Assembly: GCA_963777505.1 (NCBI GenBank)
Contig: CAVZQN010000004.1
Coordinates: forward strand, 608,001 to 672,000
Direction of reading: 5' to 3'
DNA: 64,000 nucleotides
Origin: an uncultured bacterium
GTDB lineage: Bacteria; Acidobacteriota; HRBIN11; JAKEFK01
The notes under the pieces are model-generated. The model was not told the DNA's origin, ran no database searches, and saw nothing but the letters and a program-made list of their open reading frames with translations. The position numbers and the translations under genes are program-made. Every line of letters starts with the position of its first letter. The stretch's first letter is position 1. Positions 6,446-11,210 of the stretch are shown here, piece after piece.

Positions 6446-7536
6446 GATTTCGATTTTTCTCCAAAACAATATACGAGTCCGTCTTTGGATCCGATCACGA
6501 CTTTTCTCTCAGCGACAGCTGGAGAACCCAAAACTGCCGAACCCATATCGAATTTCCAGACTTCTTTTCCGGCGCTTGTCTCAAGAGCAAATAATTCGCC
6601 CGCTAAGTTCGCAAATAGAAGGCTTTGACCTGCAATCACAGGTGATGCATCGATTCTCGCTTTTGTGGGAAACTCCCAGAAAATTTTGCCAGACTGAGGA
6701 TCTAAGGCGCGCATGACTTTATCGCGTCCACCAACAGCAACAATTTTGTTTGTAACGGCAGCAGAAGAGTAATACGGAAACTTTTTTGAAGGATCTTCAA
6801 ACTGCCATGCAATTTTTTTCGCTGCCAGATCAATGGCCAAAATCTGATTCCCAAAAGTTCCTACGTATACTCGCCCATTTGCCAATGCAGGACTCGCAGC
6901 AACATAGGCACCCAGATCTACAAATCCAACTTCCTTGCCATCACTGATGCGGATCACACGTAATTTTCCATCGCAGCCAGCAACGATAACGTTTTCTCCT
7001 TGAATTGCAGGTGTTGCATGCACATACCCTGCGGTCTCAAGTTTCCAGAGCACAGTACCATCCTTCAATGACAAACAGTACAAATGATTGTCATACGACC
7101 CAAATAATACGCGATCACCGGCAAAGTTTGCCGAGGAAATAATTCCGGCATCAGCACGAAAATCCCATTTCTTTTTTCCCGAAGATGCTTCAACCGCGTG
7201 AAACACACCAAGCTCATCACCAAAGTAAACCGTGTCTTGATACACCGAGGGTGAGGATTTGATTTCATCACTTGCTTCGTATTTCCACTTTAACTTTCCG
7301 GATTTCAGATCGATTGCGTACAAAAACTTATCGAGCGAAGCAACATACACTATGCCCCCTGCGATTGCAGCGGTTGACTCAATTCCGCCTGTTTCGAGGG
7401 TCCAAAGTGGTTCCATTTGTTTCGGTAATTCTGTTGTTGCCACGCCTGTTAATTGTGGATTGCCTCGAAATAAAGTCCAATCAGCATGGGCTGAACGGGC
7501 CGTCAGCAATATCAAGAGGCTAATAAGAAGCTTCAT
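6442..7536 (-). CDS. Exported PQQ-like/BamB-like beta-propeller protein
   Basis: Signal peptide (AHA-DW), DWTLFRGNPQLTG and very regular SSP...G..D...A-D...G...W repeats. Confidence 0.85.
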   Translation of the reverse strand: MKLLISLLILLTARSAHADWTLFRGNPQLTGVATTELPKQMEPLWTLETGGIESTAAIAGGIVYVASLDKFLYAIDLKSGKLKWKYEASDEIKSSPSVYQDTVYFGDELGVFHAVEASSGKKKWDFRADAGIISSANFAGDRVLFGSYDNHLYCLSLKDGTVLWKLETAGYVHATPAIQGENVIVAGCDGKLRVIRISDGKEVGFVDLGAYVAASPALANGRVYVGTFGNQILAIDLAAKKIAWQFEDPSKKFPYYSSAAVTNKIVAVGGRDKVMRALDPQSGKIFWEFPTKARIDASPVIAGQSLLFANLAGELFALETSAGKEVWKFDMGSAVLGSPAVAERKVVIGSKDGLVYCFGEKSKS

Positions 7537-8683
7537 ATAATTTCAAGAAATCAGATTCAGTTAAAGGTCTTGGGTTATATTTACCGGTCCATTGGTCCGC
7601 CGCATCGCGTGCCAGTTCCGGAAAATCCTGAGTATTGATTCCACACTGACGAAGATTTTGAGGCAACGTACCGGCTGTGCGAAGTTCTGAAATTCTTTCG
7701 CTTAAACGGACGCCTGGGGTGGTAGTGGAATTCTTAATACATGCAATTGTCAGAAGCTCTGCATAGGAAGTTTCCATAGTTTCTGCGTTAAACCGAACGA
7801 CCGCAGGGAGCATTAAACTGACGGCGATTCCGTGTTCAATTCCGAAATGTGATGTCAGCGGATTTGCACATGCATGTGCGGCGCCAAGCATAGAATGTTC
7901 AATTGCGATTCCTGCAAAATGGGAGCCGAGCAACATTTCTGCGCGTACTTCTATGTTTTGAGGTTCTTGGAGCACGCGTTCGTAATTCGATTCTAGAAGT
8001 TTCCATGCTTCCAGAGAAAACATTTTGGAAATAGGATTGCGCTTTGTAGTTACGAACGTTTCCACCGCGTGCGATATCGCATCAATTCCCGAGGTAGCAG
8101 TTACTTTTAGTGGAGCGCTTAGGGTCAATGAAGGATCAAGGATGATTGCGCGAAATCTTGCTTTTACATCCCCACAAGCCATCTTGCGGTTTGTTTTGTC
8201 TTGCGAAATTAAAGCATACGATTGTGCTTCACTTCCTGTGCCGGCGGTTGTTGGAATTCCGATTGAAGGTAACATTGGCTTTGTGGCGCGATTAAATCCC
8301 CAATAGTCTTCGATCGTGCCTCCGTTTGTCAGCAGAAAATTAATTCCTTTCGCTGTATCCATCGAACTCCCACCGCCTAAACCGATGATCAAATCAATTC
8401 CGCCTTTTTCGCGCGCGAAATGCGCACACCTTTCAACACTAGCAGCCGAAGGATTCTCTTCGACGCCATCAAACAGCACAAATTCAATGTTGTGTTCTTT
8501 CAAAGATTGAATGGCTAATTCAGCGATCCCAGCGGCACATATACCGGAATCAGTCACGATGAGAACTTTTGTCCCATCGAGTTCACGGATAAGTGTTCCG
8601 AGCTGCATGATCGCATTTGGACCAAAAATCACGCGCGAAGGAAATCCAAATTCAAACGTCCCATTGATCAGGCTTTGAAGCAT
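7520..8683 (-). CDS. Iron-containing alcohol dehydrogenase
   Basis: GGGSSMD, PTTAGTGSE, GIDAISHAVE, AHACAN and EHG metal-ligand motifs. Confidence 0.92.
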   Translation of the reverse strand: MLQSLINGTFEFGFPSRVIFGPNAIMQLGTLIRELDGTKVLIVTDSGICAAGIAELAIQSLKEHNIEFVLFDGVEENPSAASVERCAHFAREKGGIDLIIGLGGGSSMDTAKGINFLLTNGGTIEDYWGFNRATKPMLPSIGIPTTAGTGSEAQSYALISQDKTNRKMACGDVKARFRAIILDPSLTLSAPLKVTATSGIDAISHAVETFVTTKRNPISKMFSLEAWKLLESNYERVLQEPQNIEVRAEMLLGSHFAGIAIEHSMLGAAHACANPLTSHFGIEHGIAVSLMLPAVVRFNAETMETSYAELLTIACIKNSTTTPGVRLSERISELRTAGTLPQNLRQCGINTQDFPELARDAADQWTGKYNPRPLTESDFLKLYEASY

Positions 8684-10149: not shown

Positions 10150-11210
10150 CAATACACTCCAACAACAACGGAATCTTGAAGCTTTGAGAAAAGGCGTAAA
10201 TTCCGAACGCCATCCCATGGATATAAGGGTGTAGGTTCTGCGCGTTCTCCTTCGTCACGTTCTGCAAAACGAGGCATGAAGAACTCGCGTGTCAACGTTG
10301 TTAATAAAACGCGTCCCGTTTGATTGTATTCAACAAGTGAATCCAGGTTGTCTGGATCTACGATTTCAAATACTGCTCTGGGGTTAGGCGGATAGTAGGT
10401 GATTGCATAATTATCTGCAGGATCAAATGGCTTATAACAAGCAAGCCCCATCAAAGTATTTCCGTACGTTGGGACGAAATCGATTCCGGGAACCAATTCC
10501 TCACGTGCAAATCTGTGGAATTGCTGATTCATTTCAGTTCCACCGCAAAAAATTCCCGTAATTCCATATTTAGGCAGTGAAACTTTTTCGCATAACGCTT
10601 CCAAAAGTTTCGGAGTTGTAAAAATGCAGCGGATATTTTCGTGAGCTTTCAGAATAATCAAGCCTTGTTCAATGACATGATTTTTATATTCCTGAAGTTC
10701 TTGATGCTTACCAGCCTTGATCAGCTTATTGACCCAGCGCGGATCAAGATCAACCATAAAAGCGATACCGCCGCGATGTTGCGCAAGATGTTCAATCGAT
10801 AATCGCAAACGTCTGGGTCCGGAAGGTCCGAGCATCAACCAATCGCTGCCAAATGGAAACGATTTATGAGAAAGTGTGTCGCTGAACATTTCATAATCGA
10901 TCTGGTAGTCGCGAATGTTAATCCTGCTTTTTGGAACACCGGTCGATCCGCCGGTTTCGAAAATCGAAACAGGTTCGTTTGAATAGGCTCGTGGAACCCA
11001 TCTTCGAACAGGTCCACCGCGAAGCCATTCATCTTCGAAATGTCCAAGTTTTTTGAGATCCTCATAATTATGGATCTCTTTACGCGGATCAAACTTCAGC
11101 TTCTTTGCGTATTCAATCCAAAAAGGTGTGCCAGTTTCCGGATCGAAATGCCATTGCACGATTTCACGGACATGCGAATCTAGTTTTTCTCGCGCTTCCT
11201 TGATCTTCAT
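10149..11210 (-). CDS. EhpF-like adenylate-forming enzyme (ANL/PaaK/LuxE-related)
   Basis: WHFDPETGTPFW, ETGGSTGVPK, DLDPRWV, TTPKLL, GGTEM, YGNT, RFAERD and C-terminal GVY match Pantoea EhpF motifs as I recall them. Confidence 0.8.
   Translation of the reverse strand: MKIKEAREKLDSHVREIVQWHFDPETGTPFWIEYAKKLKFDPRKEIHNYEDLKKLGHFEDEWLRGGPVRRWVPRAYSNEPVSIFETGGSTGVPKSRINIRDYQIDYEMFSDTLSHKSFPFGSDWLMLGPSGPRRLRLSIEHLAQHRGGIAFMVDLDPRWVNKLIKAGKHQELQEYKNHVIEQGLIILKAHENIRCIFTTPKLLEALCEKVSLPKYGITGIFCGGTEMNQQFHRFAREELVPGIDFVPTYGNTLMGLACYKPFDPADNYAITYYPPNPRAVFEIVDPDNLDSLVEYNQTGRVLLTTLTREFFMPRFAERDEGERAEPTPLYPWDGVRNLRLFSKLQDSVVVGVY

Follow-up and report, generated by a model that had tools for sequence, protein, structure and literature searches.

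EhpF and EhpG, from the pathway to the phenazine D-alanylgriseoluteic acid, are said to reduce a phenazine carboxylate together, a view that draws its support from the hydroxymethyl group of the product. Griseoluteic acid carries this hydroxymethyl where the precursor, phenazine-1,6-dicarboxylic acid by name, has a carboxyl (PMC3175449, in the part available); the names ehpF and ehpG are those of a table in PMC11278526. We describe here a relative of this pair in a 64,000-nucleotide stretch of DNA from an uncultured bacterium of the Acidobacteriota (positions 608,001 to 672,000 of contig CAVZQN010000004.1), which we call the window. Three consecutive genes, C, D and E, encode a short, putatively adenylating enzyme of the ANL type, a protein with the fold of an aldehyde dehydrogenase (ALDH) and an iron-type alcohol dehydrogenase (Fe-ADH). 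Homology, motif conservation, gene order, a predicted complex of C with D and a natural fusion of D with E form the computed basis of our reading: the trio probably constitutes a carrier-free acid reduction line of the EhpF/EhpG type, extended by an alcohol dehydrogenase. On this basis the chemistry is inferred throughout, from the individual steps and the direction in which E works to the cofactor and the substrate.

Other described systems offer points of comparison. In LuxE/LuxC (PDB 7XC6) the two-protein logic is alike: a short ANL enzyme without the C-terminal subdomain works with an ALDH-fold reductase. According to the accessible part of PMC9157457, LuxE adenylates by means of an internal Lys/Arg pair and carries a Cys in the tail motif TRxxKGCxLS. 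Type I carboxylic acid reductases (CAR) convert acid, ATP and NADPH into aldehyde (excerpt of a bioRxiv preprint), the same net reaction as the one that we propose for C and D. A review of the ALDH superfamily, also available in part, states that loss of the active-site Glu removes the hydrolytic water, stabilizes the thioester and prevents its hydrolysis; in the same text, the Cys is all that remains in LuxC, coenzyme A (CoA)-acylating ALDHs and gamma-glutamyl-phosphate reductases, the last group showing His in place of the Glu.

A putative EhpF-like adenylating enzyme

By its sequence, C belongs to the EhpF family. Residues 11-333 align with residues 21-345 of EhpF (phmmer, PDB 3l2k/3hgu; E 2e-42), that is, over almost the full length, at an identity of about one third as judged by eye from the alignment; a further EhpF entry is 3HGV. 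The gene is also as long as ehpF, at 1062 nucleotides according to the available text of PMC11278526. The Pfam AMP-binding profile is matched at positions 254-373 of 384 only (E 2e-07), and we therefore describe C as a short ANL enzyme. Pfam detects no AMP-binding_C match in C, which like EhpF is without the ANL C-terminal subdomain, and the translation ends in ...VVVGVY, with the same G-V-Y end as in an EhpF-like protein. An earlier note, written from the letters of the window, had described just such a 353-residue ANL protein ending in GVY.

Orthologues for the comparisons below were taken from 80 related loci in other genomes, after dropping rows with less than 80% coverage, stops or X. The P-loop ETGG[ST]TGxPK, the YGNT motif and the C-terminal V-x-V-G-V-Y of C are kept in 79-80 of the 80 sequences, and G-V-Y also terminates distant EhpF-like and haloarchaeal proteins. 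With a median identity of 71.6% across 79 loci, C is the most conserved gene of its operon. A word-based search with C returned at least 8000 candidates at E <=0.001, and all those scored were matches; among the 120 matches listed, identity ranges from 74 to 98%, and most are unnamed or named hypothetical. An orthologue (E <=1e-80) is present in 55 of 201 sampled genomes of the window's phylum, in an all-or-none pattern by family; two of the genomes counted, G150 and G049, are unpublished, and leaving them out gives 53 of 199. In the window's own genome, C and D are each single-copy.

A conserved tail on a short ANL protein may also be read in the Lux manner: C would first self-acylate at a flexible residue of its C-terminus and then use the tail to deliver the acyl group into D. 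Architecture speaks for it, the truncated ANL protein, conserved tail and ALDH-fold reductase all recurring in LuxE/LuxC as far as the accessible part of PMC9157457 describes them, as do the persistence of G-V-Y in such distant proteins and a close fold match between LuxC and D (see below). However, there is no Cys among the last 35 residues of C, nor a conserved one in this segment of the 80 sequences; Pfam LuxE (PF04443) gives no match to C at E up to 10, and LuxC (PF05893) reaches only E 0.21 on D, with 10.8 bits against a cut-off of 21. We consider such a relay very improbable. The same results led us to reject membership of C and D in the LuxE/LuxC families, and what stands of the Lux comparison made in the earlier note is the shared two-protein logic.

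An EhpG-like protein with His at the Glu position

The second gene belongs, again by sequence, to an EhpG-like family. D is 25% identical (E 2e-37) to the ALDH encoded after the ehpF-like gene on an Escherichia coli phenazine plasmid, so that the kinship with EhpF/EhpG considered in the earlier note holds for both proteins, and it matches an ALDH-like protein on a Halalkalicoccus plasmid at E 3e-37. Pfam Aldedh recognizes D at E 3.2e-13. In an HMMER alignment to the ALDH 2d4e, Cys288, in the motif GGRSC that starts at residue 284, falls under the catalytic Cys, and Asn164 falls under the oxyanion Asn of PWNAP. His252, the first residue of HGPGWSK, lies under the Glu of pELGGKSP. Both motifs, and the substitution of the Glu, had been pointed out in the earlier note.

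This pattern is a family trait. Among the orthologues of D, Asn164, His252 (the Glu268 position), Cys288 and HGPGxSK are all kept in 73 of 73 sequences. In a wider sample of 51 full-length representatives, out of 150 listed, the Glu position is occupied by H (32), Y (7), F (7), R (2), Q (1), N (1) or a gap (1), and in no case by E, while the Cys is kept in 49 and the Asn in 47. The E. coli EhpG-like protein also keeps the Cys and is without the Glu. On the results of database searches the family is a small one, distinct from ordinary ALDHs, with 1745 of 1.84 billion representatives found at E 0.001 and 324 at 1e-30. We considered a hydrolytic NAD(P)+-dependent ALDH, with its Asn-Glu-Cys triad, as a candidate function and rejected it: the Asn and the Cys are present but His252 replaces the Glu. 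As judged from these residues, D fits the reductive, non-hydrolytic ALDH pattern.

An AlphaFold2 model of D (mean pLDDT confidence 94.7) predicts a full ALDH fold. Its structural matches include GapN (1ky8, Z 35.4), MMSDH (1t90, Z 34.6), the fusion protein BdhE (9ldl, Z 33.3), LuxC (7xc6, Z 31.4, root mean square deviation 3.6 over 429 aligned residues) and gamma-glutamyl-phosphate reductase (8zok, Z 20.1); a Foldseek search with D found generic ALDHs only, at TM scores of 0.72-0.78. The modeled structure is thus closer to full-size ALDHs than to ProA, the gamma-glutamyl-phosphate reductase. D also differs from the Lux reductase: it retains the oxyanion Asn and its Glu site is invariably His, whereas the Lux enzyme keeps little beyond the Cys, according to the partial text of the ALDH review.

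An intact iron-type alcohol dehydrogenase

The third protein, E, is matched end to end by Pfam Fe-ADH (PF00465, E 2.8e-48) and ADH_Fe_C (PF25137, E 1.2e-38), and the intact Fe-ADH that the earlier note placed after the ALDH gene is indeed there, with its motifs kept. GGGS, Asp201, His205, His270 and His284 are invariant in 63 of 63 sequences; we take the last four, located by alignment to 8zwd and 3bfj, to be the metal-ligand positions. An Asn, Asn274, is likewise found in 63 of 63 sequences four residues after the first ligand His, at a position where 8zwd and 3bfj have His. E matches BdhE (9ldl) at E 4.8e-52.

Association of the three genes

The ATG of D at position 10149 overlaps the TGA of C by 1 nucleotide, in the arrangement TGATG (ggagtgtatTGATGattcac; read in the sequence), which upholds the translational coupling of C and D claimed in the earlier note. 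An open reading frame (ORF) listed at 8689-10218 (509 amino acids) is overlong at its 5' end; we set the start of D at 10149 because the ATG there shares its A with the stop of C, and the true protein has 486 residues and begins MIHIPILRAG... Both genes are present in 71 of the related loci, at most 20 nucleotides apart in 25 and 21-150 nucleotides apart in 15; the very same 1-nucleotide overlap is found in 15 of the 25 closest, by a start-codon heuristic. The order C-D is observed in 73 of the 80 loci, C-D-E in 63 and C-D-E-F-G in 51, many of the loci ending at contig edges. Since the C-D-E order recurs in 63 of 80 loci, the arrangement is not a matter of chance.

The pairing extends beyond this operon. 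AMP-binding and ALDH genes with overlapping stop and start are found on plasmids of Streptomyces goshikiensis and Burkholderia ubonensis; abutting or overlapping pairs occur in Streptomyces and Burkholderia records, and in a haloarchaeal record the two genes are 142 nucleotides apart. Because the pair occurs in phenazine, Streptomyces, Burkholderia and Halalkalicoccus records as well, it is a recurrent two-gene module. We also found one seamless C-D fusion, P0275 (1258 amino acids), known from the protein alone, in which the two parts are joined as ...VVEGVY-S-MAVHLPILRAG...

Structure prediction supports binding between C and D, in line with the pairing suggested in the earlier note. The predicted complex scores 0.74, against 0.00 for the best of three controls; runs agree on at least 93% of contacts and the partners have pLDDT values of at least 92. 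Of 157 solved complexes, 116 attain the mark used, as do 2 of 215 mismatched pairs; these counts are only rough here because our own alignments were used. The predicted interface involves the family-specific N-terminus of D (residues 15-17 and 35-46) together with D residues 222-226 and 242; on the side of C it comprises residues 167-169, 201-208, 228-239 and 267-268. For comparison, the contact between LuxE and LuxC is reported, in the accessible part of PMC9157457, to involve LuxE residues 33-91, 290-338 and 348-357 and D335 of LuxC.

D and E are linked as well. They lie at most 20 nucleotides apart in 43 of 60 loci. In locus L088 they are fused as a single ORF (bases 7983-10619, checked in the DNA), and in L089, L092, L093 and L094 they share a frame divided by one stop. 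Fusion proteins with Aldedh and Fe-ADH domains are also known: P0125 (872 amino acids), P0133 (856) and P0124 (625). This is the order of AdhE and BdhE, in which an ALDH precedes an Fe-ADH, fused in L088, P0125 and P0133 and carried by two genes in the window.

The likeness raises the question of whether D and E form an AdhE-like, CoA-dependent pair (a CoA-acylating ALDH or acyl-CoA reductase with its alcohol dehydrogenase, working in either direction), with C as a separate ligase. Such a pair would agree with the domain order of the fusions, with the high structural similarity of D to BdhE, with the presence of a 4HBT acyl-CoA thioesterase in the extended cluster and with the fact that Glu-less ALDHs such as MMSDH, itself a close match to the model of D, are CoA-acylating (ALDH review, in part). 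It leaves aside, however, the translational coupling of C and D, whose order is unchanged in 73 of 80 loci, the reappearance of the pair in clusters of unrelated organisms, those for phenazine among them, the predicted binding of C to D, which scores well above every control, and the rank of C as the most conserved gene of the operon. We judge the CoA-dependent alternative unlikely. In the reading that we prefer, the acyl donor would be the acyl-adenylate made by C instead of acyl-CoA.

Proposed mechanism and its difficulties

In the EhpF/EhpG-type scheme that we favor, C, an ANL N-domain on its own, would use ATP to convert a carboxylic acid into an acyl-adenylate. With C seated on D, the acyl group would move from AMP to Cys288 of D as a thioester, which would be spared hydrolysis because D has His252 in place of the water-activating Glu. 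NAD(P)H would reduce the D-bound thioester to an aldehyde, which E would reduce to the alcohol. The acid is probably extracellular and would arrive by way of a TonB receptor and secreted propellers and then the symporter J, all described below. As the tail of C is without a Cys, an acyl-Cys arm swinging in the style of LuxE is not supported; a direct attack of the D Cys on the acyl-adenylate would be the simpler reading, by analogy with gamma-glutamyl-phosphate reductase acting on its acyl-phosphate. In ProB/ProA, according to the available text of the ALDH review, an activated anhydride of the acyl-phosphate type is passed to an ALDH-fold Cys reductase with His for Glu, as D has with His252; ProB activates by phosphorylation, whereas adenylation is proposed here.

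No phosphopantetheine (PP-binding) carrier domain was found by Pfam or NCBIfam in any ORF of the operon, and there is no room for a carrier gene, the gaps between operon genes being 5-257 nucleotides or overlaps. Membership in type I CAR was rejected: the operon ORFs contain neither a phosphopantetheine carrier nor a reductase domain of the short-chain dehydrogenase/reductase (SDR) type, and the reductase here has an ALDH fold with a Cys nucleophile. The carrier-free reduction of an acid to its alcohol with ATP and NAD(P)H, put forward in the earlier note, thus finds support in the homology to EhpF/EhpG, the missing carrier domain, the predicted binding of C to D and the fusion of D with E.

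Several points weigh against this scheme. C is without the ANL C-terminal subdomain, the usual source of the catalytic Lys. The reaction of EhpF/EhpG, used as precedent, is itself supported only by the hydroxymethyl group of the product. The favorable complex prediction may partly reflect a like complex, LuxC-LuxE (7XC6), that has already been solved. Among NCBIfam models E scores highest with that of ErcA, a regulatory ADH-like protein (277 bits; cut-off, 550), and E might, to judge from this match, be regulatory. In 31 of the 71 loci with both genes, C and D are more than 150 nucleotides apart with unrelated genes between them (AAA/DUF4143, transglutaminase-like, BNR and transposase genes), and two of the 80 loci are exceptions, no D being seen between C and E in L061 and no E in L078. 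Finally, the candidate C-D fusions P0274, P0277, P0278 and P0284 were discarded as apparent frameshift read-through, in which the frame of C is lost near residue 326 and that of D follows.

A further ORF of about 180 amino acids, without family match, lies between C and D in five KSB1-type loci (L006:11170-11718, L013:1376-1906, L075:11244-11789 and two more). This ORF may be a genuine short gene belonging to the cluster, or else a spurious frame.

The surrounding operon

The earlier note presented C, D and E as a three-gene cascade. The trio is present as described; it does not stand alone, being located in the middle of a much larger conserved operon (Table 1).

Table 1. Operon genes in the window, in the order of transcription (positions counted from the first nucleotide of the window; aa, amino acids)
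Gene	Product	Position	Strand	Length	Remarks
A	Secreted PQQ-like beta-propeller, first operon gene	12695..14923	-	742 aa	PQQ_2 E 3.7e-35; signal peptide
B	Secreted PQQ-like beta-propeller	11243..12679	-	478 aa	PQQ_2 E 3.2e-29; signal peptide
C	Putative EhpF-like truncated ANL adenylating enzyme	10149..11210	-	353 aa	Without C-terminal subdomain
D	Putative EhpG-like ALDH-fold acyl reductase	8689..10149	-	486 aa	
E	Predicted iron-type alcohol dehydrogenase	7520..8683	-	387 aa	Start 5 nucleotides after D stop
F	Secreted, very regular PQQ-like beta-propeller	6442..7536	-	364 aa	Beta-prop_ACSF4 E 1.3e-64, 219 bits vs cut-off 133; signal peptide
G	HemN-like radical SAM enzyme, CxxxCxxC	5096..6469	-	457 aa	Pfam Radical_SAM and HemN_C
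H	Secreted PQQ-like beta-propeller	3674..4906	-	410 aa	PQQ_2 E 1.8e-34; signal peptide
I	Siderophore-class TonB-dependent outer-membrane receptor	1408..3624	-	738 aa	Plug and TonB_dep_Rec_b-barrel; TIGR01783 225.3 bits vs cut-off 223.5
J	Sodium:solute symporter	2..1150	-	First 383 aa in window	SSF E 5.2e-32; whole protein 498 aa, L087:55-1551

The order A-B-C is kept in 55 of the 80 loci. Median identities to the window are 62.9% for B (58 loci), 58.8% for G, 56.6% for D, 54.8% for E, 50.7% for A, 50.3% for F, 48.6% for H and 47.5% for I. The operon order recurs in metagenome-assembled genomes of Thermoanaerobaculia and other Acidobacteriota, Latescibacterota, KSB1, Calditrichia and Gemmatimonadota. 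A full-text literature search retrieved no description of the operon and no biochemical paper on EhpF/EhpG.

All four propellers of the window carry predicted signal peptides, whereas C, D, E and G do not. The C-terminal part of A (about 300 amino acids) has no family, and its look-alikes are named only 'hypothetical'; the closest solved relatives of A are BamB proteins, and the PDB matches of F are designed and natural propellers with pyrroloquinoline quinone (PQQ) repeats. We rejected the possibility that the propellers are true PQQ dehydrogenases: they score 36-94 bits with PQQ_enz_alc_DH, against a cut-off of 480, and their nearest structures are BamB and designed propellers. The radical SAM enzyme G matches HemN (1olt, E 2.4e-32) and NocN (E 7.5e-27) in the PDB and stays below every NCBIfam equivalog cut-off (HutW/ChuW, 203 bits against 400; hemN, 187 against 325). 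No ORF of the genome reaches the hemN cut-off, G being the best match at 183.9 bits, and G may be the housekeeping HemN; the look-alikes of G are named only 'coproporphyrinogen oxidase family/HemW'. FhuA, Fiu and PiuA-type receptors are the closest solved structures of I.

The symporter J comes closest to the NCBIfam models PanF, PutP and MctP and reaches the cut-off of none of them. In a second clade, known from metagenome contigs and about 50% identical in C, the order is A-B-J-C-D-E-F-G ... GT4-thioesterase-167aa-ABC, and J lies directly upstream of C in 6 of the 7 loci that hold C, in the arrangement J-C-D-E. A Halalkalicoccus plasmid has the similar order SSF, EhpF-like, ALDH-like, SDR. 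Import of the acid is suggested by this recurrent adjacency, as the models nearest to the symporter carry carboxylates. In P0286, a called protein of 636 amino acids with 3 member sequences from 2 contigs, a sodium:solute symporter and the C-terminal two thirds of a C homologue share one chain. Such a joint agrees with the position of J next to C in the second clade, yet it may be an artifact of gene calling.

Downstream in the window's own genome follow a GT4 glycosyltransferase, a 167-residue membrane protein, a 4HBT thioesterase, a further propeller, a CPA2 antiporter and a MacB-type ABC transporter; the glycosyltransferase, thioesterase and transporter suggest further tailoring and export. 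The GT4 enzyme (L086:10344-11657, left of the window; also in L088, L092 and L094) has an unusual N-terminal Cys pair (..GMYCGTCLHDN..). In P0148 this N-terminal motif is joined to a fragment of D, and the GT4 gene therefore directly follows D in some genome. The 167-residue predicted membrane protein (L086:9841-10344) has no Pfam or NCBIfam family and is 64-72% identical across loci. Its gene travels with the cluster, either upstream of A (L057, L058, L005, L023, L079, L004 and L003) or beside the GT4 and thioesterase genes, and in 3 of 5 further genomes checked it lies about 1-8 kb beyond the operon locus as fetched.

An extra, full-length PaaK-like ligase (AMP-binding and AMP-binding_C_2) is encoded in 13 loci (for example, L021:16112-17419), and an FAD-dependent enzyme resembling Trp halogenases in 11 (for example, L005:18354-19613). 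The occurrence of these two enzymes in some of the operons gives a hint of an aromatic substrate. No nonribosomal peptide synthetase, polyketide synthase or phenazine scaffold enzyme was found among the window ORFs or within 12 kb beyond, and a search for a riboswitch or other RNA leader gave no Rfam match in the window at gathering scores.

An ANL N-domain can pass its acyl-adenylate to an external nucleophile. Were C a ligase of this kind, forming an amide or ester, an amine or a hydroxyl would capture the adenylate, and D and E would act on another part of the molecule or on another molecule altogether. The GT4 enzyme, the radical SAM enzyme and the second, PaaK-like ligase of 13 loci do point to multi-step tailoring. 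On the other hand, the coupling of C and D, their predicted complex and the family-wide loss of the Glu in D are more simply explained by a direct hand-over from C to D, and we find an independent ligase quite improbable.

The rest of the window contains some features of separate interest. An Lhr-type helicase appears split between 31756-35610 and 35568-36248 (+), with WH4_Lhr in the separate, overlapping ORF; the split may be a frameshift or natural. A set resembling leucine catabolism lies at 24878-30154 (+) and comprises a carboxyltransferase, an enoyl-CoA hydratase, a biotin carboxylase with a biotinyl domain and an HMG-CoA-lyase-like protein. At 43163-54065 (-), a chemotaxis-type cluster (CheB, CheR, CheW, CheA and response regulators) is accompanied by a 737-residue HEAT-repeat protein and a response-regulator protein with DUF4388.

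Discussion

The operon setting of C, D and E is new, and the logic of the module is known from Ehp- and Lux-type pairs. By analogy, the module may work like EhpF/EhpG and, more loosely, like LuxE/LuxC and ProB/ProA: the hydroxymethyl-for-carboxyl exchange of the Ehp product would be the same acid-to-alcohol chemistry as that proposed for the trio. Several differences are nevertheless apparent. Unlike the ehp clusters, the window has no phenazine genes; the partner dehydrogenase is an SDR in ehp-type clusters and an Fe-ADH here; the Glu position holds Gln in the EhpG-like protein and His in D; and the surroundings are those of an operon for uptake and processing at the envelope, in other phyla. 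Compared with Lux, C has no Cys in its tail for a covalent acyl intermediate and no luciferase genes are found here, although the thioesterase of the extended cluster recalls LuxD. As far as the compared sequences go, the module represents a separate subfamily, marked by the invariant His at the Glu site, by an Fe-ADH partner with natural AdhE-like fusion and by the non-phenazine setting.

We also advance, tentatively and with considerable doubt, a wider interpretation in which the trio would drive, from the cytoplasm, an undescribed system of at least 12 genes that spans the envelope, is found in at least five mostly uncultured phyla and serves capture, import, conversion and decoration or return. 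The siderophore-class TonB receptor and four to five secreted, non-catalytic PQQ-like propellers would bind an extracellular carboxylate, which the sodium:solute symporter would carry into the cell. There the EhpF/EhpG-type reductase and the Fe-ADH would make a hydroxymethyl from the carboxyl, the HemN-like radical SAM enzyme and the GT4 enzyme would decorate the product, and the MacB-type ABC transporter would return it to the envelope. If true, carrier-free acid reduction would here form the core of a pathway of a new kind, for a metallophore, for cofactor salvage or for an envelope glycoside.

Few systems are known in which a truncated ANL enzyme and a Glu-less ALDH reduce an acid without a carrier (Lux and, by inference, Ehp), and such pairs are of interest as compact biocatalysts. 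The same logic would here be at work in a distinct and very strongly conserved subfamily. Identifying the substrate would test EhpF-type adenylation without the canonical C-domain lysine, and it would give a function to an operon found across Acidobacteriota, Latescibacterota, KSB1, Calditrichia and Gemmatimonadota.

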